Assembly (NCBI GenBank): GCA_035289185.1
Contig: DATDXT010000033.1
Span: 1 to 30,416 of the forward strand
DNA: 30,416 nt
From: an archaeon
GTDB lineage: Archaea > Aenigmatarchaeota > Aenigmatarchaeia > CG10238-14 > SCSR01
Reading direction: 5' to 3'
Every line of letters begins with the position of its first letter. The first letter of the stretch is position 1. Both the position numbers and the translations under genes were made by a program. The notes under the pieces are model-generated. The model did no database searches. It was not told where the DNA came from and was given only the letters and a program-made list of their open reading frames with translations. Positions 3,370 to 29,300 of this stretch are shown piece after piece.

Positions 3370-3373
3370 CAAT

Positions 3374-4159
3374 TCAAACCTTATTCAAAGATTTAGAGAA
3401 ACCATCTAGCTTCCCATCTATCACATCAAGCGCATCTTTAACAATCTCATGAGATTCAAGACTAGAAGCACTTTCAACATTGAAAATAAAACTCTCATGT
3501 ACAGGCTTCACCTGTATCTTTCCGTCGCTTACATCGACACATTTCATGCAAAGTATACAGTTCAAAGGTCTGTTCACAGCAACCTTGTCGCCTTTCAGAT
3601 CAAATACATTAACAGGACAGCTATCTACATGTTCCTTCTTCCCATGCAGATCCTTATCCACAGTTATTTCGGCTTTATTCCTATATCCAACAACAGCTCC
3701 CTGCCATTTGGCATGCTTCTTTCCTATACCAAGTTTTGCAACTGCAGTAAATTCTATCTCTTCACCTGTGTTGAACATCTCTGTTATCGGTATGTTGTCA
3801 AAAACAGGCTTTACGTCCTTGTCAGTCGTCTTTATGTCTCCAGAATAGACTATGCCAGGACCTTTCTTCTTCAAAATCAATTCCACTTGACAATTGCTGC
3901 ATCCTTTTCCATCACATTTGCATTCCTCAGGAAGATTGTAACTCTTCTCATCGAAAGTAAGAGGTATCTGTCCAAGTCGGTTTGCTATTATGTCATCGTT
4001 CAATGAAGAGCCGTTCTTTTTGAATTCGACTATATCTATTGCCATGGTCTTGACTTCAGAAATCATGATCCTTCTCAAAGCAGAGACCAGCGAGACTGGA
4101 GCATCTTCCACCAAAAAGCTCATGTCTTCCTTGTTTTTATGCAATATTTTCAATTCCAT
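3374..4159 (-). CDS. rpoD: DNA-directed RNA polymerase subunit D (Rpo3) with ferredoxin-like Cys clusters
   Basis: N-terminus MELKILHKNKEDMSFLVEDAPVSLVSALRRIM... and the RLGQIPL motif. Cys clusters CKCDGKGCSNC and CP...CILCMKC are typical of the archaeal Rpo3 4Fe-4S domain. Length 261 aa. Confidence 0.85.
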   Translation of the reverse strand: MELKILHKNKEDMSFLVEDAPVSLVSALRRIMISEVKTMAIDIVEFKKNGSSLNDDIIANRLGQIPLTFDEKSYNLPEECKCDGKGCSNCQVELILKKKGPGIVYSGDIKTTDKDVKPVFDNIPITEMFNTGEEIEFTAVAKLGIGKKHAKWQGAVVGYRNKAEITVDKDLHGKKEHVDSCPVNVFDLKGDKVAVNRPLNCILCMKCVDVSDGKIQVKPVHESFIFNVESASSLESHEIVKDALDVIDGKLDGFSKSLNKV

Positions 4160-5323: not shown

Positions 5324-7829
5324 CTACTCCACCTCTTTCTACTTTGGACGGATCTATCCCATCTCCGCCTGGGAAAAATTGCACTATGTTGTTTGAACTA
5401 TCCCTTACTGTACCATCGTATTCTACTTTCAAATCCTGCAATGCGCCTACAAGCCTTCTTTCCATGTAACCGGAATGTCTTGTCTTGAGAGACTTGTCCA
5501 TCAAGGATTCTCTTGAGTTGATTGCATCAAAAAAGAACTCGAAAGGCATAAGCCCATTCACGAAACCTCTTCCTACAAAACCACCTGTCTCCAAAGTCAC
5601 ATCTCCTTTTCTGAAATGAGGAAATACTCTTTGATAGTATCCTTTTTCTATCCTTTCGCCCATTATCATTTCCTGTCCGACCATTGCTGCAGTCTGTACT
5701 ATGTTGACTACATCTCCTCTTGCACCGCTTACAGCCATCTGCAACGTAGGATTGTCTTTCATATGTTTGGTGATGACGTCTCCAACCTCATTCAATGCTT
5801 TGTTGGCTCTTCTCTTGATCAATGTCTCTACACTTTCTTTCGGTGTCCTTCCCACCAAAATTTTCAATTCATTCTTCTTGTATTGCCTTAGCAAATCATC
5901 AGTCTCTGATTTAACCTGTACCAAGATATCTCTTACTTTTCTTTCTCCGCTCTCATCCAATGACTGATCTGATATGCTTATTGAAAATCCATGTTTCATC
6001 AAGAAGCTGAGAGAAAGCTTTGAAAGCTTGTTCAAAAATTCTATGACATATGCACTGCCGAACTGGTCGCCCATCTTGCTCAATATCTTTCCACTCTCTG
6101 CACCAACTGCGGCTTTATCAATATATCCTTCCTTTAACATACCATCTTCTATTACAACTTTTTCACCGGACTTGGCTCTGAATTCTATGAACAGTCCTTT
6201 AGGCAGGAAAAGACTCAATATCTCCTTTCCATTCATTTTGTTCTTGTCAGGTATCTCTATGTTCTGGTCAGCCGATCTTATCAGCTGTATGAAATCCTTC
6301 CTTTCCAATTCAGGATTGTACTTGGTCAAAAGATAAAGACCAGTTACATAATCTTGTCTCAATCCAATAATAGGACCGGAAAATCTGGGACTTCTCAAAT
6401 TCTTTTCTACAGACATCAAGTTCTCAGCTTCGACAATCGCTTCCTCTAATTGTGGTATATGCAAGTTCATCTCATCCCCGTCGAAATCTGCGTTATAAGG
6501 AACAGTGACTATAGGGTTCAATCTCAATGTCCTGTGGTCCAAAACCTTTACTCTGTGTGCCATTATACTCATCCTGTGCAATGATGGTTGGCGATTGAAG
6601 AAAGATATATCTCCATTGATCAAATGCCTTTCAACAATATATCCGGGAGATAATTCTTTTGTCAATTCCTTACCATTTTCAGCAGTTACCTTTTTCTTCC
6701 TAGCATCAGGTCTTATGATGTAGTTTGCACCAGGCCATACTTCAGGTCCACGCTCTACAAACTTCTTCACAGTTTCCAGATTTTCTGATGTTATCCTGAT
6801 AGGAACAGTCAATTCTTTTGCTATGACCATAGGCACTCCTACTTCATCTATGTCTATGAATGGGTCTGGACTGATTACACTTCTTGCACAAAAATTCACG
6901 CGCTTGCCAGCAAGGTTTCCCCTGAACCTGCCTTCCTTCGTCTTCAATCTCTGCGATAATGTTTTCAATATTCTTCTTGATCTGTGTCTTGCAGGAGGCA
7001 CGCCTGTAAGTTCATTGTCGAAATAAGTAGAAACGTGATATTGTACAAGCTCCCATAGGTCAACAAGTATGAAATCCGGCGCTCCCAATTCTATGTTCTC
7101 CCTCAACCTCTCATTTATTCTTACAATGTCTACAAGCTTGTGAGTCAAATCATCTTCAGACCTTTCTCCTGTCTCCAAAGTAATCGACGGTCTGACAGAA
7201 ACTGGAGGCACAGGGAACAATGTCAGGACAAGCCATTCTGGCCTGAAGTTCCTGAATCCCATTAATTTGAAATCTGCATCTGTGACCTTCTCCAACTTTT
7301 CCCTTATCTGCACAGCGCTCAATATCTCGCTGCCGTCTGCTATGCTGTAAGGCTTTATGAACTTCAACTTCCCTTGTTCGGCCTTGCAGTAGGGGCATTT
7401 CTTTTTGACAGCTTTTATCAGATCCTTCAAGCTGGTCTTCTTTTCTTTTGCCTTGTCCAATTCTTTTTCATCTATCATTATCCTGCTGCACTTTTTGCAT
7501 GTGACTTTCAAGATAGAGAAAATAATCTTTGCATAAAGAACATGTATGATAGGTTTTGTCAATTCTATATATCCAAAGTGTCCGTTGCAGTCACCGATAG
7601 TTCCACCACAAGTCCTGCATCTTATTCCAGGATCGACGACTCCCATTCTTGGATCCATTATGCCACCTTCTATAGGATAGCCTTCCTCATCATAAAGATC
7701 AGTCTTAGTAATCTTTGCCGCAGCCATCTTCTTTACCATTTCTGGATTTACTATTGTGAATTCTATCGAGTTAACTAGCATAATCATCAAGTCTCCTTCA
7801 GATTTATCTTTGGATAGATAAGCATGCAT
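5289..7829 (-). CDS. rpoA1: DNA-directed RNA polymerase subunit A' (Rpo1N); a likely true start lies a few codons inside the ORF (MLVNSIEF...)
   Basis: Zn-binding Cys motifs and the catalytic [12 protein letters not shown] motif. 846 aa. Confidence 0.95.
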
Positions 7830-9583
7830 TTCAATTCATCCAACATAAGTTTGAATGCATAGCTCATTTCCACCTCGACAACATTAGATTCATTGCACAC
7901 AACACAATACTTCTTGTTCTTGATCTTGTCTTCTATAGCTACAAGGCCACATGTCATGCAGACAGGAATCACTGCCTTGTCAGAATCAAATCTTTCCTTT
8001 AAAGCAAGAGCTGCACCGTGCGCTATCAAACAGTCCTTTTCCATTTCACCCAATCTCAATCCACCTTCCTTGCTCCTTCCTTCTGTAGGCTGTTTAGTGA
8101 GAAGTGTGACTGGTCCTCTTGATCTTGCATGTATCTTGTTTGAAACAAGGTGGTCCAATTTCTGGTAGAAGCAGTTTCCTATAAACATCAAAACGTTGAA
8201 ACCTTCTCCAGTCCTTCCGTTGTACATCATCTCCATTCCATCGCTTCTGTATCCATAGCTTGTTAGCATACTCTCAAGTTGCTTCTTGTCTGGTGAATTG
8301 AATGCTGGTGCATAAACATAATTTCCACTCAATGCCGCAACTTTTCCGGCAATTATCTCTAGCATCTTACCCATGGTCATTCTTGAAGGAATTCCGTGCG
8401 GGTTGAAGATTATGTCGGGTACAATTCCGTCTGAAGTAAACGGCATATCTTCCTGTGGTACAATCGCTGCTACCACACCTTTCTGTCCGTGGCGTGAAGC
8501 AAACTTGTCTCCGACTTCAGGCCTTTTGCTGTCTCTTACAACCGTTTTTATCAACATCGTCCCGTTTGAAGTCTCTGTTATAAAGACTCTATCTACAGTT
8601 CCTAAATCTCCATGCCTCAAAGTTACTGAAGTTTCTCTTATATTTTCAATTCCTGCGACGAACTGGTCTGCTGTCCCCAAGAATCTCAAAGGAGAAGTCC
8701 TTCCAATAATTACATCATCTCCTTGCACAACAGTTTCTGGATTCACAATACCGTCTTCTGGCAGATGTTTATAGGCATCCTCGCCAAGATACCCTTTCAC
8801 CCCAGCCTGAGGTATTCCTATCACATCTTCCTGTCCGCCCATGTATCTTTTCTTCTCAGATTCATAAGTCCTGTACATGAAAGACCATAGCAATCCACGC
8901 TCGACAGAACTCTTGTTGATTATTATTGCATCATCCATGTTGTACCCGTCAAAGCACGCTATTGCAATGACTATGTTGGTTCCGTTTGGATGGCTGGAAT
9001 AGTTGATAGGTTTGTGTATGAACGTCTGCACAAGAGGTGTCTGAGGATAAACCATAAGATTGGATTTAGTATCCACCCTGTTCAGGAAATTCGTTGAAAA
9101 AAGACCTATGCTCTGCTCTACCATTTTAGCGCCGAAGTTGACTCTGTCACCACGGTTGAATTCTGGAAAAGGTATAGTAGAAGCTGATAGACCTAAAATA
9201 ACTGATGGGTCAAGCTCAAGATGAGTATGATCCTTGTTAAGGTCGGCTTCTCTCAATGCGATATAAGTTCCTTCCTCCTCTTCAGAATCCAAATATTCTA
9301 TTACGCCATGCTTGACAAGTCCGTTCCAGTCGAGCTCTCCTTTCTTGACTTTTTCCAAAATCTCTTTGGTCAAAGTAGACTTACCATCATGTATAACAAT
9401 CAGTGGCCTTCTTACTCTTCCTCCTTCTGTCAAAATCTTGACTTCTTTCATATGTTCTAGATAAACGACATTTACTTGTTCAGACAATTTTCCATGTCTT
9501 CTAGCTTCCAATACATTGGCTACCAATTTCTTCGGATCGTTGGTCATCCCGACATATTTTCCATCTAAGAATATTTCTGCCAT
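7787..9583 (-). CDS. rpoB1: DNA-directed RNA polymerase subunit B' (Rpo2C, C-terminal half of split RpoB)
   Basis: Conserved Rpb2 C-terminal regions (GQKGVV..., the GEMEKDCLIAHGA switch region, and the C-terminal Cys4 Zn ribbon CMTCG...CVVC). Confidence 0.95.
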   Translation of the reverse strand: MAEIFLDGKYVGMTNDPKKLVANVLEARRHGKLSEQVNVVYLEHMKEVKILTEGGRVRRPLIVIHDGKSTLTKEILEKVKKGELDWNGLVKHGVIEYLDSEEEEGTYIALREADLNKDHTHLELDPSVILGLSASTIPFPEFNRGDRVNFGAKMVEQSIGLFSTNFLNRVDTKSNLMVYPQTPLVQTFIHKPINYSSHPNGTNIVIAIACFDGYNMDDAIIINKSSVERGLLWSFMYRTYESEKKRYMGGQEDVIGIPQAGVKGYLGEDAYKHLPEDGIVNPETVVQGDDVIIGRTSPLRFLGTADQFVAGIENIRETSVTLRHGDLGTVDRVFITETSNGTMLIKTVVRDSKRPEVGDKFASRHGQKGVVAAIVPQEDMPFTSDGIVPDIIFNPHGIPSRMTMGKMLEIIAGKVAALSGNYVYAPAFNSPDKKQLESMLTSYGYRSDGMEMMYNGRTGEGFNVLMFIGNCFYQKLDHLVSNKIHARSRGPVTLLTKQPTEGRSKEGGLRLGEMEKDCLIAHGAALALKERFDSDKAVIPVCMTCGLVAIEDKIKNKKYCVVCNESNVVEVEMSYAFKLMLDELKCMLIYPKINLKET

Positions 9584-19549: not shown

Positions 19550-20890
19550 ATGGTATTGGAAGACCTTGGAGGAGGATTGAAAGCAGCTTTCAACAGGCTG
19601 GTATCCTCAGTCACAGTGGACAAGTCATTGATAGAGCAGACAGTCTCAGACATAAGAAGGGCTTTAATTCAATCAGATGTAAATCTCCAGCTTGCAAATG
19701 ATATTGCAGACAAAATAAAGAAAAGATCGATGGAGGAAAAGACACCTTCTGGCATGAGCAAGCGTGAACAAGTAGTAAAGATAGTATACGAAGAGCTCGT
19801 GAACATGCTTGGAAAGAAGTTCCAGCCATTGAAGCTTGACAAGAAACCATCCATCATACTTATGGCAGGCTTGCTTGGAGCAGGAAAGACCACAAGCACG
19901 GCCAAACTGGCAAGATACATACAGAAGCAGGGAAGGAATGTCGGAATCATAGGAGCAGACGTCTACAGACCAGCGGCTTTAGCGCAATTGGAACAGTTAG
20001 CAAAGCAGATCAACGTCCCAGTGTACGGTGAAAAGGGAAATAAGAATGCTGTGAAGATTGTAGAGAACGGGATGAAAGAGTTTGCGAAGAAAGATGTCAT
20101 CATTATCGATACAGCAGGCAGGTACAAGCAGTCAGAAGAGTTGATGAAGGAGATAAGGCAGATAGGCGAAAAGGTCAAGCCGGACGAGACCATACTCGTC
20201 ATCGATGCCACTATAGGACAGCAGGCCAAACAACAGGCTGAAGCATTCCACAAGGCAGTTCCGATTGGCAGCGTGATGATAACAAAGATGGATGGTACTT
20301 CAAAAGGCGGAGGCGCGTTGAGCGCTTGCAGTGTCACTGGAGCTAATGTCAAGTTCATAGGAATGGGAGAGAAGATAGACAGCCTTGAATTGTACGATCC
20401 TGACAGGTTTGTTTCCAGGATGTTAGGTTTGGGTGATTTGCAGACATTGCTGGAGAAGGTGAAGGAGACAGGAGTCAGCAAAGAATCAATGGAAAAGATG
20501 ATGGAAGGAAAATTCACATTGCAGGACTTCATAGAACAGATAGAGAATGTAAGCAAGGTAGGATCTTTATCGCAGATAGCAGGAATGATACCTGGGTTTG
20601 GCAGCGTGAAACTGCCTAAGGAAGCATTGGAGAAGCAGGAAAGAAAGATGAAGATATGGAAGTTCATAATCCAGAGCATGACAAAGAAGGAGAGAGAGGA
20701 TCCAGCGCTTGTTGATGCAGCTAGAATCAAGAGGATAGCAAAAGGTTCTGGCAGGCAGGAGATGGAAGTAAGGGAATTATTGAACCAGTACAGTTCAATG
20801 AAGAAGATGATGAAGGGACTTGGCGGAGTAAGAGGAATGGATAGGGGTCAGATGAAGGAATTGGCCAAGCAAATGGGATTGAAGTTTTGA
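19550..20890 (+). CDS. srp54: Signal recognition particle protein SRP54
   Basis: Starts MVLEDLGGGLKAAFNRL (canonical SRP54 N-terminus). NG domain (GLLGAGKTTSTAKLA, DTAGR, TKMDG) and a Met-rich M-domain. The in-frame upstream extension from 19466 is not conserved. Confidence 0.95.
   Translation: MVLEDLGGGLKAAFNRLVSSVTVDKSLIEQTVSDIRRALIQSDVNLQLANDIADKIKKRSMEEKTPSGMSKREQVVKIVYEELVNMLGKKFQPLKLDKKPSIILMAGLLGAGKTTSTAKLARYIQKQGRNVGIIGADVYRPAALAQLEQLAKQINVPVYGEKGNKNAVKIVENGMKEFAKKDVIIIDTAGRYKQSEELMKEIRQIGEKVKPDETILVIDATIGQQAKQQAEAFHKAVPIGSVMITKMDGTSKGGGALSACSVTGANVKFIGMGEKIDSLELYDPDRFVSRMLGLGDLQTLLEKVKETGVSKESMEKMMEGKFTLQDFIEQIENVSKVGSLSQIAGMIPGFGSVKLPKEALEKQERKMKIWKFIIQSMTKKEREDPALVDAARIKRIAKGSGRQEMEVRELLNQYSSMKKMMKGLGGVRGMDRGQMKELAKQMGLKF
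20863..20890 (+). repeat. Direct repeat copy 1 (last 9 codons of srp54: LAKQMGLKF-stop)
   Basis: ggccaagcaaatgggattgaagttttga matches 21960..21987 at 23 of 28 positions. Confidence 0.85.
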
Positions 20891-20921
20891 GTTATCATGT
20901 AACACGTGTTACACAGCCAAA

Positions 20922-20934
20922 TTTTGTAGTCACC
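20922..20934 (+). promoter_or_regulatory. TTTTGTAGTCACC motif copy 1 upstream of fic
   Basis: Exact 11-13-mer repeated at 20954..20966 and 21943..21955, and inverted at 21924..21933. Confidence 0.5.
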
Positions 20935-20953
20935 TATATACAAAAAGTTTATA

Positions 20954-20966
20954 TATTGTAGTCACC
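20954..20966 (+). promoter_or_regulatory. TTGTAGTCACC motif copy 2, 12 nt upstream of the fic ATG
   Basis: Exact motif repeat. Confidence 0.5.
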
Positions 20967-20977
20967 TAATACTTATT

Positions 20978-21928
20978 ATGCACGTGGAAATAAGGAACGT
21001 TGGCAGAAAGAAAAAATATTACCTTGCACACTCATTCAGGCATGATGGGAAGGTCAAAAAGTTCAGATTTTATCTTGGAACTGATTTGACAAAAACAGAA
21101 TTAAACGACAAAATAAAACACGCAAAGGAAATTTTGGATGAGAGGATAAAAGCATATGGAAAAGTAGGAGACCCGTTCTATACAGTTATTACATCCAAAG
21201 AATTGGAATATGTAAAACATCTGGAAGATAAATACAGGATGGAAGAAATAAAAGTTTTGCACCTGTCTGAAAAAAACTGGGCCGAATTTACAAAAGCATT
21301 CACATACGATACCAATGCCATAGAGGGATCCACCGTGACTTTTACAGAAGTCTCTGACATATTGGAAAAAAAAGAATGGCCTAAAGAAAAGCAAAAATGG
21401 GAGATATCTGAAACATATGGAGTTGCGGAAGCCGTTGATTTCATAAGAAATTCTAGGGAAGACATCTCTTTAAAATTGATAAAAGAACTCCACAGGATTG
21501 TGTTCAAGAATTCCAAGGATTTTGCAGGCAAATTCAGGAAGAATGGAGAGGAGGTCGCTGTAGTGGACGCCTTTGGCAATATAAAACATAGAGGAGCCCC
21601 ATCATCGCAGATTGTCAGGCTTCTTAATGAATTGATACGTTGGTATGGCAAAAACAACCGGAAATATCCTGCATTGGTGTTGGCTGCTGTGGTACACAAT
21701 CATTTTGAAACTATACATCCATTCAAGGACGGAAATGGGAGAGTCGGAAGGCTTTTGTTGAACAACATATTGTTGAAGCACGGTTTGCCGCCCGTCAACA
21801 TAGAGCTGAAAAGCAGGCAGGAATACTACAGGGCACTGCAGGAATATCAAAAAATGAGGAATCTTCGACCAATGATAGAGCTTATATTGAGAGAATACAG
21901 GAGATTTATGAAAAGCCTGAACAGGTGA
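20978..21928 (+). CDS. fic: Fic/Doc-family protein (class II Fic AMPylase with N-terminal inhibitory helix)
   Basis: Canonical Fic motif HPFKDGNGRVGR and an upstream inhibitory motif TNAIEGS ((S/T)xxxE(G/N)). Confidence 0.9.
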   Translation: MHVEIRNVGRKKKYYLAHSFRHDGKVKKFRFYLGTDLTKTELNDKIKHAKEILDERIKAYGKVGDPFYTVITSKELEYVKHLEDKYRMEEIKVLHLSEKNWAEFTKAFTYDTNAIEGSTVTFTEVSDILEKKEWPKEKQKWEISETYGVAEAVDFIRNSREDISLKLIKELHRIVFKNSKDFAGKFRKNGEEVAVVDAFGNIKHRGAPSSQIVRLLNELIRWYGKNNRKYPALVLAAVVHNHFETIHPFKDGNGRVGRLLLNNILLKHGLPPVNIELKSRQEYYRALQEYQKMRNLRPMIELILREYRRFMKSLNR

Positions 21929-21954
21929 CTACATTTCTATGTTTTGTAGTCACC
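21924..21954 (+). terminator. Hairpin (10-bp stem GGTGACTACA / TGTAGTCACC, 11-nt loop) overlapping the fic stop codon; terminator-like or recombination site
   Basis: Perfect inverted repeat seen directly. Its 3' arm is the third copy of the TGTAGTCACC motif. Confidence 0.45.
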
Positions 21955-21959
21955 CAGTC

Positions 21960-21987
21960 GGCCAAGCAGATGGGATTGAAATTCTAG
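21960..21987 (+). repeat. Direct repeat copy 2: displaced duplicate of the srp54 3' end encoding AKQMGLKF-stop
   Basis: ggccaagcagatgggattgaaattctag. All 5 differences from copy 1 are synonymous or stop-for-stop. Confidence 0.85.
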
Positions 21988-21995
21988 AAATCCAT

Positions 21996-22958
21996 CTATT
22001 TTAGATAGTTGTAAATGGTTCTAGATACATTGCTGGCTGTTTCACTGAAATCTTTTTTTGTTGTCCCAGAACTCATTATACATAACATATAAGGTTTGTT
22101 TGGTGCATAGATTATTCCACAATCATGATAGCTTTTTGTAGGACCCCAATCGCCTATCTTATGAGCCACTTTTATATTGTCTGGCAAACCAGATACTATT
22201 CCGTAATCAAATTTTGTATCTGAAAGCAGAGAAAGTATAAAGTTAGAAAATGTTCTTCTAAGATAGGCAGAATAGTATAAAGCGCGTAAAATGTTCATAT
22301 AATTTTTTGGAGTGATTGCAGTCGAACTTATATCAGGCGAAAATGAGGGTGGAGGAAGTCCCATTGCAATATAAGCTTCTGCCAGATCGCCATATGTCAG
22401 TTGTCTGACAAGTACATTGTATGCTGTGTTATCAGATTCGTTTATAACAAAGTTCAGAGCAGATTTCACATCAATGTCATATCCATATCCCTTAGAAGCT
22501 AGACTGCCAAATGTAAGATTAGGTTCTATATCAGCCTCGGAAATTGTCAATTTTGTTTCCATAGACAGGTAGCCATCCTCTAATTTTTTTACTATAGCGA
22601 TCACTGCTGGAGTTTTAAGTAGGCTTGCTGGTACGAACATATCCCTTTCATTAATTCCAAACCATGCTCCTGTTATAAGGTCTTCAAAATAAATACCATA
22701 ATGGCCTTTTGACGAGTTTGTTATTTTCTCAACTTCTGTTTTTAATGGTGTATACGAAACTGTAAGGTATTGTTGTCCCCGAAGAAAATTATTCACTTCC
22801 ATACTTGCTGTCTGAGGATCAATGAGTGCATAATTATCAGAACGGTCTCTTTCCCAAGAGTTGCTTATGATGTAAACTATGAGCGAAATATTTATAACAA
22901 CCATTATAGAAAACCAAAACTTGAGAGATTTCAAATCTATTTCAATTTTAGACACCAT
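21996..22958 (-). CDS. Membrane-anchored class A beta-lactamase-like serine hydrolase
   Basis: N-terminal TM anchor. SxxK (PASLLKTP), SDN (INESDNTAYN) and KxG (HKIGDWG) motifs occur in class A order and spacing. The ATG at 22958 is preferred over the TTG at 22967. Confidence 0.6.
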   Translation of the reverse strand: MVSKIEIDLKSLKFWFSIMVVINISLIVYIISNSWERDRSDNYALIDPQTASMEVNNFLRGQQYLTVSYTPLKTEVEKITNSSKGHYGIYFEDLITGAWFGINERDMFVPASLLKTPAVIAIVKKLEDGYLSMETKLTISEADIEPNLTFGSLASKGYGYDIDVKSALNFVINESDNTAYNVLVRQLTYGDLAEAYIAMGLPPPSFSPDISSTAITPKNYMNILRALYYSAYLRRTFSNFILSLLSDTKFDYGIVSGLPDNIKVAHKIGDWGPTKSYHDCGIIYAPNKPYMLCIMSSGTTKKDFSETASNVSRTIYNYLK

Positions 22959-22967
22959 TTCTACCAA

Positions 22968-22995
22968 TTATACAATAAATAGATTTATTGTATAA
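22968..22995. promoter_or_regulatory. Perfect 28-bp palindrome TTATACAATAAAT-AG-ATTTATTGTATAA in the divergent bla-like/trmY promoter region
   Basis: 13-bp arms are exact reverse complements. It lies 10 nt from the bla-like ATG and 20 nt from the trmY ATG. Confidence 0.5.
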
Positions 22996-23014
22996 TAAAC
23001 CAAAGATAACTTTC

Positions 23015-23614
23015 ATGAGAGAATTCATCCTAAGGGCATCCAAGACAGTGACCAATCCTAACTACATCAATCTGAATGACTTGCCTGGTGCAGGAAGACT
23101 TGATCTTGTTTGCAGGTGTGTTACAAATGCTTTGTTCATCTCCAACGACATGCGCAGAGATACAATCATCCATGTCGTGCTGGAAGGCCCAAACTACCCG
23201 CCTAAGACTGTAAGTTTTGATGGAAACGAGTTGAGAAGTCTTGCTCCGGACGAAAGGAACTGCGCATCCCACATAAAGATAGCGTTGGAAAGAGGAGACA
23301 GTCTAAAGATAGGAGAAAGCAAGAAATCTGAGGACGGTATAACTGTAAGCAAGAAAAGCTTTGAGGCTTGGATAAAGGAGAAGAGCAAGACAAACCAGTT
23401 GATATATCTTCATCCTGAAGGTAAGGACATAAGGGAGTTCAAGTTCGAGAAAGATGTCTGTTTTGTGATGGGCGACCACGTGGGTTTGGAAAAAGTAACC
23501 GAGAAGCTTCTGAAGAGGTTCGGTGCTGTAAAAGTAAGTCTGGCTCCTGCATACTATCTGGCATCGCAATGCATAACCATCTGCCATAACGAGCTTGATT
23601 TAAGGCTAAAGTAG
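23015..23614 (+). CDS. trmY: tRNA pseudouridine-54 N1-methyltransferase TrmY (SPOUT, DUF358)
   Basis: MREFILRASK...NLNDLPGAGRLDLVCRCVTNALFISNDMRRD...VLEGP matches the archaeal TrmY family. Confidence 0.75.
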   Translation: MREFILRASKTVTNPNYINLNDLPGAGRLDLVCRCVTNALFISNDMRRDTIIHVVLEGPNYPPKTVSFDGNELRSLAPDERNCASHIKIALERGDSLKIGESKKSEDGITVSKKSFEAWIKEKSKTNQLIYLHPEGKDIREFKFEKDVCFVMGDHVGLEKVTEKLLKRFGAVKVSLAPAYYLASQCITICHNELDLRLK

Positions 23615-23664
23615 GGCTTTATATACTTTTACTACCTTATAGTGACATAAGAAAGGTGTCTAAA

Positions 23665-24306
23665 ATGTCAGAGTTAAAAGAACTGTTAGGTTCATTGGAA
23701 GACTTGTCTAGCAGAGCAGCTTATCATGCTGTTAATCAGGAGCCAAGATTAGCTTATAAGACATTATCAGATTTAGAAAACATGCTAAACGATGAGAATG
23801 TTAAAAAAGTCTTACCTCAGAATTCTTACAATGCTTTTCTTGAAAGAAAAACCCAGATAGAAAATTATATGAACAAAACAAGTAAAAAAAGGACAGAATT
23901 TGCAAAAAAATCAATGGCCGCATCACAAGTATATGGTTTTTTATACAGCGCAGAAAATGCTTTAGAATCTGCAATATTATTCTCGTCTCCAAAGGAAGAG
24001 ATGAAATATTATGTGTCCTCTTTAGACTTTGTAAAGAAAATGGAAGCTATGTCTTTTAACTATGGAATAGATGTTCCACAGAGAGCCGTGGATTTCAAAC
24101 AAAAATTGGAAAAAGCAGCCAAAGACAGATATCTAAAACACGCAGATGCACTTATAGAATCGAAAAGATTCCCAGAAGCTGAAGACATGTTGAATGATGC
24201 AGAACAGTTTATAATTACATTAACAGATAAAGTCGATACAGAAGATCTTGACATAGAACAGCGTAGAAAAGTGATAAGAGAATCTTTTACTAGAACAGGT
24301 GATTAA
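23665..24306 (+). CDS. Hypothetical alpha-helical protein, 214 aa
   Basis: The GGTG Shine-Dalgarno-like motif lies 7 nt upstream of the ATG. The ORF ends 1 nt before the next gene. Confidence 0.5.
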   Translation: MSELKELLGSLEDLSSRAAYHAVNQEPRLAYKTLSDLENMLNDENVKKVLPQNSYNAFLERKTQIENYMNKTSKKRTEFAKKSMAASQVYGFLYSAENALESAILFSSPKEEMKYYVSSLDFVKKMEAMSFNYGIDVPQRAVDFKQKLEKAAKDRYLKHADALIESKRFPEAEDMLNDAEQFIITLTDKVDTEDLDIEQRRKVIRESFTRTGD

Positions 24307-24307
24307 A

Positions 24308-24571
24308 ATGTCAGAACAAACAACTGTTAGAGAAGGTATTGCAAAACAGATTATGCTTAGTTATTTTCCAGAGCTTAGAAACGACCAGCCAAAAAATATG
24401 ATTAAAGTTTATGGAAGAGACCAGTCTGCCATAGGTTTCTACATTACAAAGATTGCTGGAGCTCCAAACAGAGCAGGAAGACCATTGTACAGAGTCAGAC
24501 AGGGAGAGATTGGTGGAACAACTGACATACCTATTACAGATCCTGAAAATTATAGAAGGGTATTAATGTAA
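24308..24571 (+). CDS. Hypothetical small protein, 87 aa
   Basis: Translationally coupled to the upstream gene. Its start context is nearly identical to that of the upstream gene. Confidence 0.45.
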   Translation: MSEQTTVREGIAKQIMLSYFPELRNDQPKNMIKVYGRDQSAIGFYITKIAGAPNRAGRPLYRVRQGEIGGTTDIPITDPENYRRVLM

Positions 24572-24609
24572 TAACTTTATTTTCCAGAGAAGGCGAGCGT
24601 CTTTTAGAA

Positions 24610-24747
24610 ATGGCTGAAAGAGCAGTAAGATCGAAAGAATATGCTGAAAAAGTTGAAGCTAAGGTTGATGCAGCAGAGGCAAGATATAGAGAGACGCGTC
24701 CTTTATGCAACCCTGTTATCATTGAGAAAAAGCCGTTGCCTGAATAG
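24610..24747 (+). CDS. Possible small ORF, 45 aa (MAERAVRSKEYAEKVEAKVDAAEARYRETRPLCNPVIIEKKPLPE)
   Basis: Hand-translated ORF. It is below the ORF-track length cut-off and has no strong ribosome-binding site. Confidence 0.2.
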   Translation: MAERAVRSKEYAEKVEAKVDAAEARYRETRPLCNPVIIEKKPLPE

Positions 24748-24780
24748 AATATAGATTATAGTTACAGATTAGTTTTGTGA

Positions 24781-24810
24781 AAAATAAAAAAAAGAAAAAA
24801 GAAAGGAAAA
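24781..24810 (-). terminator. Oligo-T tract (minus strand) downstream of ftsZ; archaeal-type intrinsic terminator
   Basis: A 30-nt A-rich run on the plus strand, which is T-rich on the ftsZ coding strand. Confidence 0.5.
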
Positions 24811-24937
24811 GTTTTCACTCATCTATTGTGTTCTCAGTAGAATCCTCTGAATCGAATTCATCCAGGGGGTCCCACATGTCTTCTTCCATTTCTTTTCCCT
24901 TCCTTTAAGCTTTTTGAAGAATTGGGCGAGGTTACCC

Positions 24938-26116
24938 TCACCTAATTATGTCAATACCGAGCGCTCTACTGATTTCCTTAACTACAGGCTTCTCGAAGCT
25001 TACAGGACCTACTATGTACGGCGACTTTACGCCAGTTATGATAGTGATTACCTGTAATCTTCCTTCGAAATCAGGAAGTACTCTTGCTCCCCAGTAGATT
25101 TGTGCTTGGGAATCCAGATGTTTGGACACTGATTCACCGATCATATTGACCTCATCTAATCTGAGATCAGTACCTCCGGTTATGTGTATCAAAGCACCGC
25201 TGGCTCCTGCGTAATCCACTTCAAGCAAGGGGTTTTCCAATGCCTTCGTTATGGCGTCTTTTGCTCTGTCGGAACTGTTTGACTCGCCAACACCGATAGC
25301 TGCCACTCCACCAGAATGCATCAACGCTTTCACGTCTGCATAGTCCAGGTTTACTAGACTTGGCAGGGTTATAGTCTCGGTTATTCCTTTGACCATGCTA
25401 GCGACTAGTTCGTCTGCTACTGCGAATGCCTGTTGGATCGTAAGGTTTCCTGCATACTTCAGCAATCTATCGTTCTCGATGACAATGGCTGTATCACAGA
25501 CTTGTCTGAGCATAGCCAAACCATCTTCGGCTTTTATTTGCCTAGATCCTTCCAACTTGAAAGGCATGGTAACTACTGCTATTACAATAGCTCCCATTGA
25601 TTTTGCCACTTCGCAAACGATTGGAATGCTTCCAGTACCGGTACCTTTTCCAAGGCCCGCAAGAGCGAACACTAGGTCTGCACCATCTATCGTGTCTTTG
25701 ATTTCGCTTCTAGACTCTTCAGCAGCTTTCTTACCCACTTCTGGGTAACCGCCTGCGCCTAGACCGCGAGTCAACTCTTTTCCTATGAGAATCTTTTTGT
25801 CTGCTTTTCCTACTGCTAAATGTTTAGCATCTGTGTTCAATGCTATGGTTGTTGCACCGTCAATGCCCATTTCTGTCAATCTTGTGATTGTGTTTTGTCC
25901 CGCACCACCGCAGCCGACTACTACGATCTTTGCTCTTTTCACAGCAAAGCCGAATTCCTGCTCGGCCAACTTGTAATAATCTACATTACTGTATGTAGCG
26001 CCAGATGTGTTCTCTAGTTTGAATCTGTTTCGAGGTGTTTCTTCTACCCAATTGCTCTTCCCTATCGCGTTTTTTATTATCGAATCCATTTTTTGTTCAC
26101 CTATGTTTTTTATCAT
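24938..26116 (-). CDS. ftsZ: Cell division GTPase FtsZ homolog (variant tubulin signature GLGKGTGTG)
   Basis: IVVVGCGGAGQN G-box, T7 loop NLDYADV, and a conserved C-terminal peptide. Confidence 0.85.
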   Translation of the reverse strand: MIKNIGEQKMDSIIKNAIGKSNWVEETPRNRFKLENTSGATYSNVDYYKLAEQEFGFAVKRAKIVVVGCGGAGQNTITRLTEMGIDGATTIALNTDAKHLAVGKADKKILIGKELTRGLGAGGYPEVGKKAAEESRSEIKDTIDGADLVFALAGLGKGTGTGSIPIVCEVAKSMGAIVIAVVTMPFKLEGSRQIKAEDGLAMLRQVCDTAIVIENDRLLKYAGNLTIQQAFAVADELVASMVKGITETITLPSLVNLDYADVKALMHSGGVAAIGVGESNSSDRAKDAITKALENPLLEVDYAGASGALIHITGGTDLRLDEVNMIGESVSKHLDSQAQIYWGARVLPDFEGRLQVITIITGVKSPYIVGPVSFEKPVVKEISRALGIDIIR

Positions 26117-26188
26117 ATATTTTCCAGTATCTAAAACCTTTTATATGGTCTTGGATAACTTATCTTTAGAAAGAAATAAACTATTTTA

Positions 26189-26233
26189 TTGGTACTCGTA
26201 CCAAAAAAGAAATAATCTCGACAATTATTTCTT
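26189..26233. promoter_or_regulatory. Two adjacent inverted repeats in the ftsZ / receiver-gene divergent intergenic region
   Basis: TTGGTAC-TC-GTACCAA (26189..26204) and AAGAAATAAT-ctcgaca-ATTATTTCTT (26207..26233), both seen directly. Confidence 0.3.
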
Positions 26234-26467
26234 CCAATTTACAAGTTAAAGCTATTACTATAAAACGATGTATATATTCAATCATACACTTTCGCTGAAT
26301 TTTCGGAAAAGAATCTGAATTTTCATACAAAATTTTGGACTGGAAGATGATTTTATAAAGATTTCTGTCCAATTGTTGTTTGGAGATGGTAATAGATGCA
26401 GGTTTTTGCAGATAGAACAGAGACGATAGAGAAACCACATGAAGTTAGCTATGGAAACAGAGAAAAG

Positions 26468-26833
26468 ATGGCTCTGCATGTGGATGATGAGGAAGAATGG
26501 AGAGACATTGTTGAAAGGTCGCTGACAAGTTTGGGCTATAAGGTAGTGCAGGCGGCCAATTTCCAAGACGCAGAGTTTTCTGCAAAGAACCAAAGGTTTG
26601 ATCTTTATGTGATTGATGGTACTTTTCCCATGAAACCCGAGGAAGCTGGTGACAGGGAAGCCGGATTGAAGCTTTACAAGCTATTGAATGACTTGCATGG
26701 CGATAGTTCGAAATATGTGCTCCTTTCTGGTGATGGCTATGTGGAAGCAATATGCAATAGGGACGGAATACCTTTCTTGTATAAAAGACATTTTGCTAAA
26801 AAATTCCAGGATTTTGTCAGAAAACTAGGTTAA
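26468..26833 (+). CDS. Stand-alone response-regulator receiver (CheY-like REC) domain protein
   Basis: MALHVDDEEEWRDIVERSL...FDLYVIDGTFP...YKRHFAKK pattern with a DD pair, a phospho-acceptor Asp and a conserved Lys. The ORF is open from 26396. Confidence 0.6.
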   Translation: MALHVDDEEEWRDIVERSLTSLGYKVVQAANFQDAEFSAKNQRFDLYVIDGTFPMKPEEAGDREAGLKLYKLLNDLHGDSSKYVLLSGDGYVEAICNRDGIPFLYKRHFAKKFQDFVRKLG

Positions 26834-26917
26834 AAGGTAAATAGTCATTACTTGAGGATAATGAAAGCTTTAAATAGTTTGCTGTCCTATAATAAGTTAA
26901 GAAAATGGTGAGGAAAA

Positions 26918-27313
26918 ATGAACGATATGTGGACTGAGAAAGACGGCTTATCGCATTTGAATATGCTACCAAATTTATTGGTGGCATTGGCCGAGGGTAA
27001 CGGTTCCTTGAGAAAATATTCTGAAACAAGATATGGTTTAGCTTCTGTAACCTACAAAATCAGAATAAGAGAATATTCTTTGCGTTTGGAGGACGGCACA
27101 GATGTTCTATATAAAGTAGAAGAAGATGGCATACAAAAATTACAAGAAACCATAAAGCTAAATGGAAAGGTTGCGTTTGAAAGACCAAATGTTATTAATT
27201 TCGAAAACACATTCTACGAATTTAATCCACGATCAAAGCTAGATAAGTTGCATGAAATAAATAAGCATGAAATAAATAAGCATGAAATAAAAAAGTTTGT
27301 AGACTTAGGCTAG
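26918..27313 (+). CDS. Hypothetical protein, 131 aa, with C-terminal HEINK tandem repeat
   Basis: A strong GGTGAGG Shine-Dalgarno-like motif lies 8 nt upstream. Confidence 0.5.
   Translation: MNDMWTEKDGLSHLNMLPNLLVALAEGNGSLRKYSETRYGLASVTYKIRIREYSLRLEDGTDVLYKVEEDGIQKLQETIKLNGKVAFERPNVINFENTFYEFNPRSKLDKLHEINKHEINKHEIKKFVDLG
27251..27295 (+). repeat. 3 x 15-bp tandem repeat (catgaaataaataag) encoding HEINK-HEINK-HEIKK
   Basis: Seen directly. The third unit has 1 mismatch. Confidence 0.7.
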
Positions 27314-28741
27314 ATTTTCCTTCTCAAAATAAGTCCTTAAAAATATACAAAAATCTTCATTCGCCATCAAAGCTTTGGAAATAGAATCTGCATCCGAATA
27401 AATCCTGAACCCTTTCATCATCTGCTCTGCTATGTAGTTCGGTATTCCCTTAGCCTTCAGTGTGTTTATGTCTTTTTTCAAGCTATCGACAAGCTTGTCC
27501 CTCGCGTTCAAGAACCTTCTTTCTATCTCCACAACCCATTTATCATTCTCTATAAAAGGACCGTTGATGATGTCTCCTTTCATGTATTTTTCAATGAACC
27601 TCTTTGCATCGTCTACGTCAAAAACGCTAGGTCCGATCCTCTTTTGAACATTGGGCAGATTCTCATAAAATTCCATCTCCAATAAAACTACAGCAATGTC
27701 CTTATCGTTCGTATAGACGTCCTTTCTCAAGACCTTGAACTCATTTTTAGTTTCTTCCAGTATGCTTTCTATCCTGTCTGCGAACTTCCTCAATTGTGGC
27801 CAAAGAATATCAGGAACAACCTTCGGAGGATCCATCTTTACCACCAGAAGCCCTGTGTTTCTTTTCTCTAGATAACTGGTCAGTTCTGCAGTAGTCAACG
27901 GCTTTACATTCTTTTTGATGAAAAATGATTTTGCAGGCTCTTTTAAGAAAGCTTTTACAACTTTTATAAGTTTGAAGAAATTCTCTGGCGAAACAGCGGA
28001 TGCAACGTTCCTGTTCTTGTCTGTAGGGTCTATCAAAACCAATGCCTCCCCCCTGAACTTGTGATTCAGGCTCTTGTAATCCTTCTTATCATAGTATTTT
28101 TCCGTGTCTATAATTTCCCCAGGCTTCCAGTCTGCAATGTTTTTCAAAACGTTCATGAATTTGCCATAGTTTATTACCAGTACTTCGCATGCATATCCAG
28201 ACAAACCTTGCGCTCTAGCATCAGCGCCATAGACTCCACCAGCTTTGCATAATTGCTTCAAAAGTCTGACCTCATCTGAAAGCGATTGTGGCAGGTTCTT
28301 GTCAAGATATCTTACATGGAAAGGTGTCCTATCAACTGCAGACTTTATCTCCTTCGTAGATTCTACAGCATAACAAGGCACTATGTCCACTTGCATTCCA
28401 TCGATTTCGCCTGTCACATAAGGATGCTGCGCATATTCCACCCAAGACGTTCCTTTCAACCTTTTGATCACCGCCCTACCTACAGATATCCCTATGTCTT
28501 CCAGTTCCTTCTCTGGCAGGCTTTTGGGAAAAACAAGGAAAACATCGCATTCTTTCTTGTCAGGCAGCCATGTATTCCTAGTAACGCTTCCAGCAGACAT
28601 CGCTTCTGCACCATACTTTTCTATCTCTATGTCCGCAAAAGCAACAATCTTCTTAGACAAAGTCTTTAGCTTTTCCTCGTCTTCCTTGCTCGGCTTTACT
28701 ATCTTCAATGCTTCGTTGATGACTTTCTGATAATTGTCCAT
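27305..28741 (-). CDS. cca: CCA-adding enzyme (archaeal class I tRNA nucleotidyltransferase)
   Basis: The GSVTRNTWLPDKKECDVFLVFP NTase motif and overall length match the archaeal enzyme. The start MDNYQKVINE is preferred over the upstream M at 28774. Confidence 0.85.
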   Translation of the reverse strand: MDNYQKVINEALKIVKPSKEDEEKLKTLSKKIVAFADIEIEKYGAEAMSAGSVTRNTWLPDKKECDVFLVFPKSLPEKELEDIGISVGRAVIKRLKGTSWVEYAQHPYVTGEIDGMQVDIVPCYAVESTKEIKSAVDRTPFHVRYLDKNLPQSLSDEVRLLKQLCKAGGVYGADARAQGLSGYACEVLVINYGKFMNVLKNIADWKPGEIIDTEKYYDKKDYKSLNHKFRGEALVLIDPTDKNRNVASAVSPENFFKLIKVVKAFLKEPAKSFFIKKNVKPLTTAELTSYLEKRNTGLLVVKMDPPKVVPDILWPQLRKFADRIESILEETKNEFKVLRKDVYTNDKDIAVVLLEMEFYENLPNVQKRIGPSVFDVDDAKRFIEKYMKGDIINGPFIENDKWVVEIERRFLNARDKLVDSLKKDINTLKAKGIPNYIAEQMMKGFRIYSDADSISKALMANEDFCIFLRTYFEKENLA

Positions 28742-28759
28742 AAATTTATTTTCTATCTG
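28721..28759. repeat. Direct repeat copy A spanning the cca start codon
   Basis: gactttctgataattgtccataaatttattttctatctg is about 33 of 40 identical to 29261..29300. Confidence 0.75.
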
Positions 28760-28802
28760 CAAGACTATAATCATTTATAAACTGTAGTAACAATAGGAAT
28801 TT

Positions 28803-28988
28803 ATGACAGAGCTTGAAACTTTGCATGCAGAAATAGATGAAATAAGGTCAAATGTGACAAAGATACTATTCATACTTGAAAACGAAGGCGAAGTAAATAA
28901 AAAAGTATTGAAAGAGCTGAAAGAAAGTAAAAGTGCTACAAAAGACAAATTCTTGCCCCACGAAACTCTTAAGAGATCTTTGAAATGA
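28803..28988 (+). CDS. Putative type II antitoxin, 61 aa, helical and charged
   Basis: Small ORF whose stop overlaps the relE start (ATGA). Confidence 0.5.
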   Translation: MTELETLHAEIDEIRSNVTKILFILENEGEVNKKVLKELKESKSATKDKFLPHETLKRSLK

Positions 28989-29242
28989 CATGGCATATAG
29001 AATGGTACAGAAAGGCCGCAAAAAATCTGGAATCTTTACCCAAAGAAATTCGTGATAGAGTTGTTAAATACATAGACAAAGTTCAACAAGCCCCATTTAA
29101 TTTTCTAGAACACTTTGAGCTGAAAGGCTATTATAAAATCAGAGTAGGTGATTATAGGGCAATTGCTTCTGTAGATTTTCAAAACAAAATCATTTCTATT
29201 ATTATATTTGATCATAGGAAAAGAATTTACAAAAGACTTTAA
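28985..29242 (+). CDS. relE: RelE/ParE-family type II toxin (mRNA interferase)
   Basis: ...ELKGYYKIRVGDYRAIASVDFQNKIISIIIFDHRKRIYKRL is the hallmark RelE/StbE C-terminus. 85 aa. Confidence 0.85.
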   Translation: MTWHIEWYRKAAKNLESLPKEIRDRVVKYIDKVQQAPFNFLEHFELKGYYKIRVGDYRAIASVDFQNKIISIIIFDHRKRIYKRL

Positions 29243-29251
29243 TAAGTTCCA

Positions 29252-29281
29252 TTATAAAAAGACTTTCTGATAAATGTCCAT
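29252..29281 (-). pseudogene. Duplicated 5' remnant of cca (ATG + MDIYQKVFL-stop)
   Basis: The reverse complement reads atg gac att tat cag aaa gtc ttt tta taa, compared with the authentic cca start MDNYQKVIN. Confidence 0.5.
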
Positions 29282-29300
29282 AAAATTACTTTCTGTTTAG
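29261..29300. repeat. Direct repeat copy B (flanks the TA cassette distal to cca)
   Basis: gactttctgataaatgtccataaaattactttctgtttag. Confidence 0.75.

Follow-up and report, generated by a model that had tools for sequence, protein, structure and literature searches.

Duplicated gene ends enclose a single-gene Fic insert and a RelE/ParE toxin–antitoxin insert in a genome fragment of Candidatus Aenigmatarchaeota

The stretch of DNA analyzed here (contig DATDXT010000033.1, 30.4 kb, hereafter the window) carries two small inserts, each enclosed by two copies of the end of a chromosomal gene. One is a Fic gene located at the 3' end of srp54, which encodes the signal recognition particle GTPase, and the other is a toxin–antitoxin (TA) pair of the RelE/ParE type located at the 5' end of cca, which encodes the archaeal CCA-adding enzyme (Table 1). 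The window belongs to Candidatus Aenigmatarchaeota, a DPANN lineage. It contains archaeal core genes recognized by Pfam (RNA polymerase subunits, Nop5, fibrillarin, prefoldin, FtsY, SRP54, an RNA methyltransferase, FtsZ, and the CCA-adding enzyme), and the relatives of its FtsZ at 70–90% identity all come from metagenome-assembled genomes of this lineage. Genes identical to those of the window were found on groundwater and sediment metagenome contigs, and no tRNA genes were called in the window by ARAGORN. Other contigs and loci are cited below by L numbers.

The insert at srp54 consists solely of the Fic gene with its promoter and 3' hairpin, a unit of 1.07 kb that lies between two 28-nt repeat copies. 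The copies are identical at 23 of 28 positions, with a longest identical run of 11 nt, and each of them encodes AKQMGLKF followed by a stop codon. The working srp54 gene ends within copy 1 and is intact; copy 2 begins after a gap of 5 nt from the 3' inverted repeat of Fic, and its stop codon is 8 nt from that of the convergent beta-lactamase-like gene. The five differing nucleotides comprise three synonymous third positions and the replacement of TGA by TAG, so that substitutions affect three of the eight third codon positions versus none of the 16 first and second positions (p = 0.028). Since both the peptide and the stop have been kept, unlike in a freely drifting relic, the two copies most likely evolved as working coding ends in separate lineages and were then joined by the insertion. 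In the closest srp54 relative found (78% SRP54 identity), the upstream synteny is kept, no Fic gene adjoins srp54, and the gene downstream of srp54 also differs from that of the window; Fic is thus not conserved at srp54. The srp54 end of this relative matches the relic at 21 of 28 positions versus 18 of 28 for copy 1, a weak hint that the relic could be the native end and that the working end arrived with the cassette. The perfect palindrome in the left spacer may serve as the srp54 terminator. A protein identical to SRP54 of the window is encoded on contigs L242 and L243. Exact-protein look-ups with SRP54 (446 aa) and the CCA enzyme (489 aa) returned no record; a 460-aa SRP54 variant is on record.

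At cca, the insert is a 0.5-kb unit of an antitoxin gene and a RelE/ParE toxin gene between two 34-nt repeats (R1 and R2, 31 of 34 positions identical), and the cca gene is intact. The working copy reads MDNYQKV and the relic MDIYQKV; a gapped alignment revealed no convincing similarity beyond the 34 nt. The repeat, together with the typical N-terminus of CCA enzymes, points to the ATG at 28741, within the repeat, as the true cca start, rather than the ATG at 28774. The TATA-like box lies 22 nt ahead of the antitoxin ATG and 33 nt ahead of the cca ATG, and it is probably a promoter shared by the two divergent genes. The 85-aa toxin scores 43 bits with profile PF05016, for which the cut-off is 23. 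No match was obtained for the 61-aa candidate antitoxin in Pfam, NCBIfam, or PADLOC, and its homologs (43–59% identity) are located upstream of RelE homologs in L248, L251, and L012. By its profile match above threshold and its small overlapping partner gene, the pair is classified from sequence as a type II TA system of the RelE/ParE family. The identical 85-aa toxin is on record for 19 contigs, and it has the same context in all 10 of those shown. The right-hand repeat is represented by a single allele, identical in every contig long enough to hold it. At the left junction, a strain-variable tract contains approximately 30 single-nucleotide polymorphisms (SNPs) in 190 nt, and around it the cassette, R2, and the next gene are near-identical across strains. 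This tract demonstrates recombination at the cca junction.

Table 1. Features of the srp54 and cca sites, with positions counted from the first nucleotide of the window
Feature	Position	Strand	Description
srp54, signal recognition particle GTPase	19550..20890	+	Target of the Fic cassette; Pfam SRP54_N, SRP54, SRP_SPB
Repeat copy 1 (attL-like)	20863..20890	+	Working last 8 codons and TGA of srp54; GGCCAAGCAAATGGGATTGAAGTTTTGA
Left spacer	20891..20925	+	Perfect 16-nt palindrome TGTAACACGTGTTACA (20898-20913), read from sequence
Fic promoter/operator	20926..20966	+	GTAGTCACCT (20926-35), TATA box TTTATATAT (20948-56), GTAGTCACC (20958-66)
Fic gene	20978..21928	+	316 aa; Pfam Fic 1.7e-21
3' inverted repeat	21924..21954	+	GGTGACTACA across the stop codon, 11 nt, TGTAGTCACC; right end of the module
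Repeat copy 2 (attR-like)	21960..21987	+	Displaced srp54 3'-end relic, TAG stop; GGCCAAGCAGATGGGATTGAAATTCTAG
Class-A beta-lactamase-like gene	21996..22967	-	Native convergent neighbour of srp54, outside the cassette; Pfam Beta-lactamase2 6.6e-39
Predicted empty site (attB) at srp54			Copy 1 or 2 joined straight to AAATCCATCTATTTTAG
cca, archaeal CCA-adding enzyme	27305..28741	-	Target of the TA cassette; Pfam tRNA_NucTransf2, CAA_C, NTP_transf_2
Strain-variable tract	28592..28782		About 30 SNPs in 190 nt; spans the 5' end of cca, R1, and the edge of the cassette; L003-L010 versus window
Repeat R1	28721..28754	-	Working cca start (7 codons) and 13 nt upstream; two alleles among strains
Cassette left end	28755..28802		TATA-like box TTTATAAA (28774-28781), read from sequence
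Candidate antitoxin, 61-aa open reading frame	28803..28988	+	4-nt overlap with the toxin gene
RelE/ParE-family toxin, 85 aa	28985..29242	+	Pfam ParE_toxin 6.8e-11
Repeat R2	29261..29294	-	cca start relic (MDIYQKV, stop after 9 codons)
Predicted empty site (attB) at cca			Repeat (R) joined to GTTTAGTTAAAG

Both sites thus show single-unit cassettes that lack a recombinase, are flanked by att-like gene-end duplications, and leave the host genes intact, in agreement with the initial annotation of this DNA. That annotation had given the repeats as 28–40 bp; the duplications proved real, with lengths of 28 and 34 nt. Short repeats in A+T-rich DNA might reflect chance similarity or a local duplication unrelated to insertion, but this explanation is effectively refuted by several controls. 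An unbiased sample of Aenigmatarchaeota DNA (1.07 Mb) was provided by 80 related loci that had been collected by an FtsZ anchor for another purpose, namely to view both sites together; FtsZ synteny is not conserved among them, so that they revealed no empty sites. After shuffling of this DNA, no direct repeat scored 20 or more at a spacing of 250–4000 nt, compared with a score of 25 for the cca pair. The 99th percentile for unrelated pairs of upstream and downstream flanks was 15.4 (the srp54 pair scores 18), and flank repeats scoring at least 16 occurred in 6 of 392 random 1-kb segments (1.5%). Moreover, the repeats are located exactly at gene ends and exactly around complete gene units, and the same layout recurs at many loci with the 11-fold enrichment reported below. 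Both repeat pairs are therefore confirmed as real at the places listed in Table 1.

The Fic protein is composed of an N-terminal three-stranded sheet and helix followed by a FICD/HYPE-like class II Fic domain. Its inhibitory motif (TNAIEGS) and its active site (HPFxDGNGRxGR) are invariant and belong to the same polypeptide. The AlphaFold model has a mean confidence score (pLDDT) of 90.8 and its top Foldseek matches are FICD structures; in PADLOC the protein matches PDC-S04 (E = 1.9e-36) and SoFic (E = 2.7e-35), and it falls under every NCBIfam family cut-off. By these sequence criteria it is classified as a FICD/SoFic-like self-inhibited class II enzyme, and its PADLOC placement suggests a single-gene enzyme of the defence type. 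It shares with the SoFic/FICD class II AMPylases (PMC12249575; bioRxiv 10.1101/2022.05.11.491447) the HPFxDGNGRxxR motif, the N-terminal (S/T)xxxE(G/N) motif, the FICD fold, and the single-gene organization, whereas its extra N-terminal three-stranded-sheet domain and the strictly conserved GTAGTCACC operator pair around the TATA box set it apart. Assignment to the classical class I toxins (FicT/FicA) was rejected, as the inhibitory TNAIEG is part of the same protein and no small antitoxin gene is adjacent. Thus, of the two payloads described earlier as toxin-type, the RelE/ParE protein is a bona fide family member, but the term does not suit Fic. The Fic family comprises proteins of about 313 aa, with 3,193 matches at E < 1e-20, and the few members that have a name are assigned in their annotation to Aenigmarchaeota or Micrarchaeota (DPANN).

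The promoter region of the Fic genes is highly conserved. Every Fic locus inspected has GTAGTCACCT, about 12 nt, a TATA box, 3 nt, and GTAGTCACC, which ends 10–12 nt ahead of the ATG (11 nt in the window). A metagenome scan with the DNA pattern of this promoter yielded at least 118 stretches, and 80 listed loci were examined. A Fic homolog (42–68% identity) directly follows the motif in 74 of these 80 loci, that is, in all listed loci with enough sequence and an open frame behind the motif; two further loci are cut at the contig end, and four are decayed, with Fic-like open reading frames (ORFs) of 71–215 aa (L178, L142, and L161) or about 15 codons (L201). The GTAGTCACC pair was also considered as a general cassette end and rejected, since the scan never found another gene behind the motif, always Fic. 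By this association the motif is classified as a Fic-specific promoter/operator, and the GTAGTCACC(T) element is probably the operator for some binder, perhaps the N-terminal domain of Fic itself. Although the proteins share only 42–68% identity, this 10-nt element has been retained around the TATA box and at the Fic 3' end in the window and in loci L092–L100 and L124–L203. At the stop codon, Fic homologs of at least 57% identity retain the inverted pair GGTGACTACA-N11-TGTAGTCACC; in more distant homologs (~50–55% identity), one motif copy lies inverted upstream and another, in direct orientation, overlaps the stop codon.

The lack of further examples had been named in the initial annotation as grounds for abandoning its proposal, and further examples were found for both payloads. 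Among 47 distinct metagenome Fic modules with adequate flanks, 8 (17%) have flank repeats scoring at least 16, which corresponds to an 11-fold enrichment over the random segments (p = 1.8e-5). The targets are diverse: the 5' end of the type I restriction gene hsdR as identified by Pfam (L133, 43 of 45 nt), the 3' end of a gene without assigned identity (L158, 49 of 59 nt, each copy in frame and with a stop), the 3' end of tRNA-Ser(GCT) (L129, by Rfam, and the L190 group, in which at least three relic tRNA-Ser copies form an array), a tRNA-end-like sequence (L127), and intergenic DNA (L141, L192, L167, and L180). The right junction is tight, the repeat starting 4–7 nt past the last motif in the window and in L158, L127, L141, L133, L180, and L167; the left junction distance varies between 5 and 38 nt (window, L158, L127, L141, and L180). 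The Fic module has moved between contexts, as modules 88–89% identical in DNA occur in unrelated surroundings (L133, L141, and L144). It can also be lost: L130 (reverse complement, 8600-9020) is the same locus as L158 from a related lineage, with 91% identity upstream, and it keeps the promoter and both gene-end copies, whereas exactly the Fic ORF is gone. The junction falls within the 12-nt motif repeat, and the loss is attributable to recombination between the two direct motif copies.

Several additional features were observed at Fic loci. Downstream of the relic copy, L130 and L158 share no related sequence, and the relic in both is an ATG-initiated ORF of 19 codons with the frame and stop kept. 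Duplication of the tRNA-Ser(GCT) 3' end recurs at several loci (L027 4456-4885, L129, L190, L151, L159, and L182), and that of tRNA-Glu was seen once (L039). The relic array of the L190 group adjoins a candidate IS1182-like transposase ORF, as judged by eye. In L133 (1865-2089), a 74-aa zinc-ribbon ORF that has no Pfam match is located inside the bracketing repeats; it is also present in L146 and L188, forming a two-gene cassette in one sublineage. Intron-containing tRNA genes, likewise recognized by eye and not called in a default ARAGORN run, lie 8–9 nt upstream of the Fic modules in L125 (~1510-1617) and L189 (~3280-3393; module orientation). Arrays of CATTGA-type repeats with a period of ~10 nt flank Fic in L096/L098 and L099/L100, and a 37-nt block CATCGTTGAGTATTGGCAGGGTATCGACGAGTATTGA precedes Fic in L099 and follows it in L096. 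Two divergent fluoride riboswitches (Rfam RF01734, E = 1e-8 to 3e-10) are found near the Fic module of L092, at 827-888 on the minus strand and 1034-1098 on the plus strand. The conserved block beside Fic in L180, L167, and L092 matched no Rfam family.

A second RelE-type cassette was identified in the 1.07-Mb sample. In L033, a ParE/RelE gene with an antitoxin-like partner is enclosed by perfect 54-nt copies of the 3' region of mscL; the functional mscL copy acquires the new tail VMKEEKVTKK*, and the relic retains the old tail SERGEGFK*. No mscL orthologs, which could tell the native tail, were present among the collected loci. To the left of this cassette is an extra copy of ~62 nt that holds the promoter of the downstream gene together with its first 10 codons, so that the junction from the mscL end to the start of the next gene occurs twice within a nested duplication (7482-8640), in a short version on the left and a long native one on the right. 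Smaller inserts with one small ORF each, of 297 and 418 nt, are enclosed by duplicated 3' ends of tRNA-Ser (L027) and tRNA-Glu (L039, 7276-7821), respectively, and single ORFs lie between 31–51-nt repeats in L075, L080, and L090. Other RelE homologs (60–75% identity) occur in different contexts, and no repeats were detectable at L248 and L251. An array at L250 (1-1400) consists of a TA unit, a 69-nt spacer, the same TA unit, the spacer, a second inverted TA unit, and a diverged spacer, the spacer having 9-nt terminal inverted repeats (TTGAGAATT...AATTCTCAA); it was rejected as a gene-end duplication, because here an entire TA unit is duplicated in tandem together with the 69-nt spacer. Other rejected candidates are L071 (tandem HIT-family paralogs), L087, L090, and L044 (paralogous genes), and L051, L059, and L060, in which repeats 273 nt apart look like internal duplications within one unannotated gene.

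The basic architecture of these inserts, which the initial annotation thought might be undescribed, is a known attL/attR hallmark. Archaeal elements integrate in the 3'-distal part of protein genes or in tRNA genes and supply a new stop codon, and the att repeats of Crenarchaeota are 29–69 bp long (PMC6563490); integration events at archaeal tRNA genes span ~9–23 kb, as cited in PMC9897764. The integrated mobile genetic elements of archaea that use tyrosine integrases (Krupovic et al. 2019, PMC6563490; She et al., on 'gene capture') are similar in having attL/attR repeats of tens of nucleotides, a replacement end or stop, targets at tRNA and protein-gene ends, and tandem integration. They differ in carrying their own integrase and many genes, whereas the cassettes described here amount to 0.3–1.3 kb with one gene unit and no integrase or fragment of one, and also use the 5' gene end (cca and hsdR). 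Att-type repeats are present at the inserts in the window and at related loci, but the element-encoded tyrosine or serine recombinase of an autonomous element is missing. What is unusual is that single-gene units of this small size, lacking an integrase, recur across DPANN genomes.

Closer in this respect are the cis-mobilizable elements (CIMEs) of Firmicutes, which lack integration genes but keep attL and attR, accumulate in tandem, and could be moved by the integrase of another element (PMC5704250). The inserts in the window likewise have attL- and attR-like repeats and no integration or transfer genes. However, CIMEs are bacterial, several kilobases long, and recognizable as decayed integrative and conjugative or integrative and mobilizable elements; no parental element is known here, and one conserved single-gene Fic module is found at many different att sequences. 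The cassettes of integrons, including the TA cassettes of chromosomal superintegrons, are also single-gene units devoid of a recombinase that carry TA cargo and form arrays (compare L250 and the L190 group), and the imperfect terminal inverted repeat of the Fic module adds to the likeness. Nevertheless, the earlier description of the inserts as integron-like has to be given up: they have their own promoters, their repeats are derived from the target and specific to the locus rather than a shared attC, the GTAGTCACC repeat occurs only with Fic, and the window contains no IntI gene with attI and Pc. Assignment to transposons, insertion sequences, or casposons was rejected as well, since the window encodes no transposase or casposase and the duplications (12–59 nt) are imperfect and not of a fixed length. 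Mobile ORFs of organelles, e.g., in Allomyces atp6, replace the 3' end of the host gene while the old end persists downstream, leaving variable and imperfect duplications. They encode homing endonucleases that drive the event, whereas the payloads described here have no known DNA-cleaving activity.

Taken in its general form, the interpretation of the repeats as integration scars around minimal cassettes is very probably correct. The fuller proposal, namely that these non-autonomous units are mobile as such and are moved by a site-specific recombinase acting in trans, is tentative, its chances falling a little short of even. According to this proposal, each insert would be one self-contained gene unit with its own promoter (Fic, or an antitoxin with a RelE/ParE toxin) that enters as a small circle, or as an equivalent 'ends-in' fragment, bearing a short mimic of a chromosomal gene end. 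A single crossover with the gene end (attP x attB, Campbell type) would place the insert between two gene-end copies, of which one completes the host gene and the other is a displaced relic. The enzyme would most likely be a tyrosine-type integrase supplied by a co-resident element or by the chromosome; like the circular intermediate and the direction of the crossover, it is a part of the scheme that we infer. Because the genome is compact and the ancestral srp54 ended 8 nt from its convergent neighbour, only inserts bringing a replacement end would survive, and the gene ends would therefore be duplicated. Extending the proposal further, DPANN archaea could host a whole population of single-gene 'defence/addiction cassettes' (Fic, RelE-type TA pairs, and small ORFs) of 0.3–1.3 kb with gene- or tRNA-end mimics, moved in trans by a recombinase or by host recombination, but this generalization is doubtful.

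A number of results weigh against movement of the units by a recombinase in trans. Neither the cassettes nor the major ORFs of the window contained a detectable integrase or other recombinase domain. When ~3,300 ORFs from 1.9 Mb of related loci were searched by phmmer with E. coli XerD, the tyrosine-recombinase candidates numbered only two, and a link to a cassette could be demonstrated for neither of them. One lies near a Fic module in L163, but at a contig edge and with cellular-looking genes in between. A strict tyrosine-recombinase regular expression gave no matches. No circular form, clean empty site, or presence/absence polymorphism was recovered in population contigs, and the inserts are carried by each of the three Fic contigs and by each of the 10 RelE contigs inspected out of 19 on record. 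In the viral contig collection, no helper element with either att-like sequence was found. Finally, only about one Fic module in six has flanking repeats, and the lengths (12–59 nt) and imperfection of the repeats suit homologous recombination as well as site-specific recombination.

Two rival explanations dispense with units mobile as such or with a dedicated enzyme. The inserts could be reductive remnants of the 'gene capture' or CIME type, left by integrase-bearing viruses or plasmids that entered at gene ends and decayed in the streamlined DPANN genome, where deletion bias would have spared the addictive TA pair and the defence-type Fic gene while attL and attR remained. This explanation is unlikely, although far from negligible: the att architecture is the same as in full-size archaeal elements (PMC6563490), the persistence of attL and attR and the tandem accumulation of CIMEs (PMC5704250) have a parallel in the tandem tRNA-Ser relics and nested repeats of the L190 group and L192, TA pairs would be expected to survive longest, the population looks fixed for both inserts, and the left junction distance varies. 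On the other hand, independent Fic insertions end 4–7 nt (right) and 5–38 nt (left) from the module, and trimming of such exactness that nonetheless spared a useless relic is improbable. Moreover, no partly decayed intermediate, such as an integrase fragment or other element genes, was seen between the repeats at any locus, and the viral contig collection contains no member of this Fic family: the Fic profile retrieved only distant homologs there (at most 34% identity), and a relaxed motif pattern matched only coding-repeat noise. Less probable still is an origin by host homologous recombination, in which a circle or ends-in fragment from a related lineage, carrying the donor's orthologous locus, would be integrated by a single crossover within the short gene end. 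The junction of L033, present in a short and a long version, is exactly what a circle with a copy of the donor junction would leave; the repeats are imperfect and of variable length, with purely synonymous differences at srp54; the mosaic SNP tract adjoining the cca junction indicates active recombination there; and no integrase was found in the window, nor one demonstrably linked to a cassette in related loci. Identity at srp54, however, extends over no more than 11 nt and the repeat of L180 over 13 nt, and runs of 11–13 nt are very short for RadA-type recombination. Duplicated tRNA 3' ends and tandem relic arrays are classical signatures of integrases, and the first gain of a new target segment by a cassette is left unexplained by homologous crossover.

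Two other explanations are highly improbable. According to one of them, Fic modules are self-mobile in the manner of a transposon, the GTAGTCACC copies being terminal repeats read by the Fic N-terminal domain or by a transposase in trans and the flanks being target-site duplications. The motif is indeed found at both module ends, with a layout resembling terminal inverted repeats (inverted left, direct over the stop) in the subfamily of ~50–55% identity, the spacing of the right junction is fixed, and the deletion in L130 removed precisely the Fic ORF, between two direct copies of the motif; slippage between 12-nt repeats explains L130 equally well. Fic enzymes act on protein hydroxyls, which makes a role of Fic in its own transposition less credible. 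Furthermore, the duplications are unlike target-site duplications in their range of lengths (12–59 nt), imperfection, and coding constraint in both copies, the TA cassettes lack the GTAGTCACC motif, and the motif is placed around the TATA box as an operator would be and was never ahead of another gene in the scan. The other, with an equally slight chance, is the initial suggestion that toxin cassettes are directed to translation-machinery genes by a system of their own, or that they are addiction markers protecting these genes. Both targets in the window function in protein targeting and tRNA maturation (srp54 and cca), and tRNA ends are frequent elsewhere. Yet the remaining targets include hsdR, mscL, a gene without assigned identity, and intergenic DNA alongside tRNA-Ser and tRNA-Glu, Fic is not a classical toxin, the use of tRNA ends is generic for integrases (PMC6563490), and nothing points to a protective role. 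What is targeted is the ends of genes and tRNAs generally, rather than translation genes.

Three further observations concern neighbouring genes of the window. The beta-lactamase-like protein encoded next to the srp54 relic falls below the NCBIfam cut-offs and has an N-terminal hydrophobic segment; such a protein is odd in an archaeon that has no peptidoglycan, and it may relate to a bacterial partner or prey. A 131-aa hypothetical protein has C-terminal HEINK repeats encoded by three tandem 15-nt units (GCATGAAATAAATAA, 27250-27294), and the 3' ends of its gene (to 27313) and of cca (from 27305) overlap. The start context GTG(A/T)(T/C)TAAAATG is common to three hypothetical genes, at 23656, 24299, and 29408, and is probably a common ribosome-binding or other 5' signal, in which case the ATG is the true start.

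If single-gene units lacking a recombinase do move in these archaea, they would show how genomes nearly free of intergenic DNA gain defence and addiction genes, and would provide a route by which ultra-compact genomes take up genes with their neighbours unbroken. They would point to a trans-acting integration activity in DPANN archaea and would represent a functional analogue of integron cassettes and CIMEs in archaea, with att sites derived from the target. A duplicated gene end around a single gene unit would then be a simple signature of recent gene flow in uncultured symbionts. The invariant GTAGTCACC operator pair of Fic offers a test case for archaeal auto-regulation of a defence enzyme. 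Even if the inserts are only the survivors of decayed elements, they would still illustrate how TA and defence genes outlast the vehicles that brought them.

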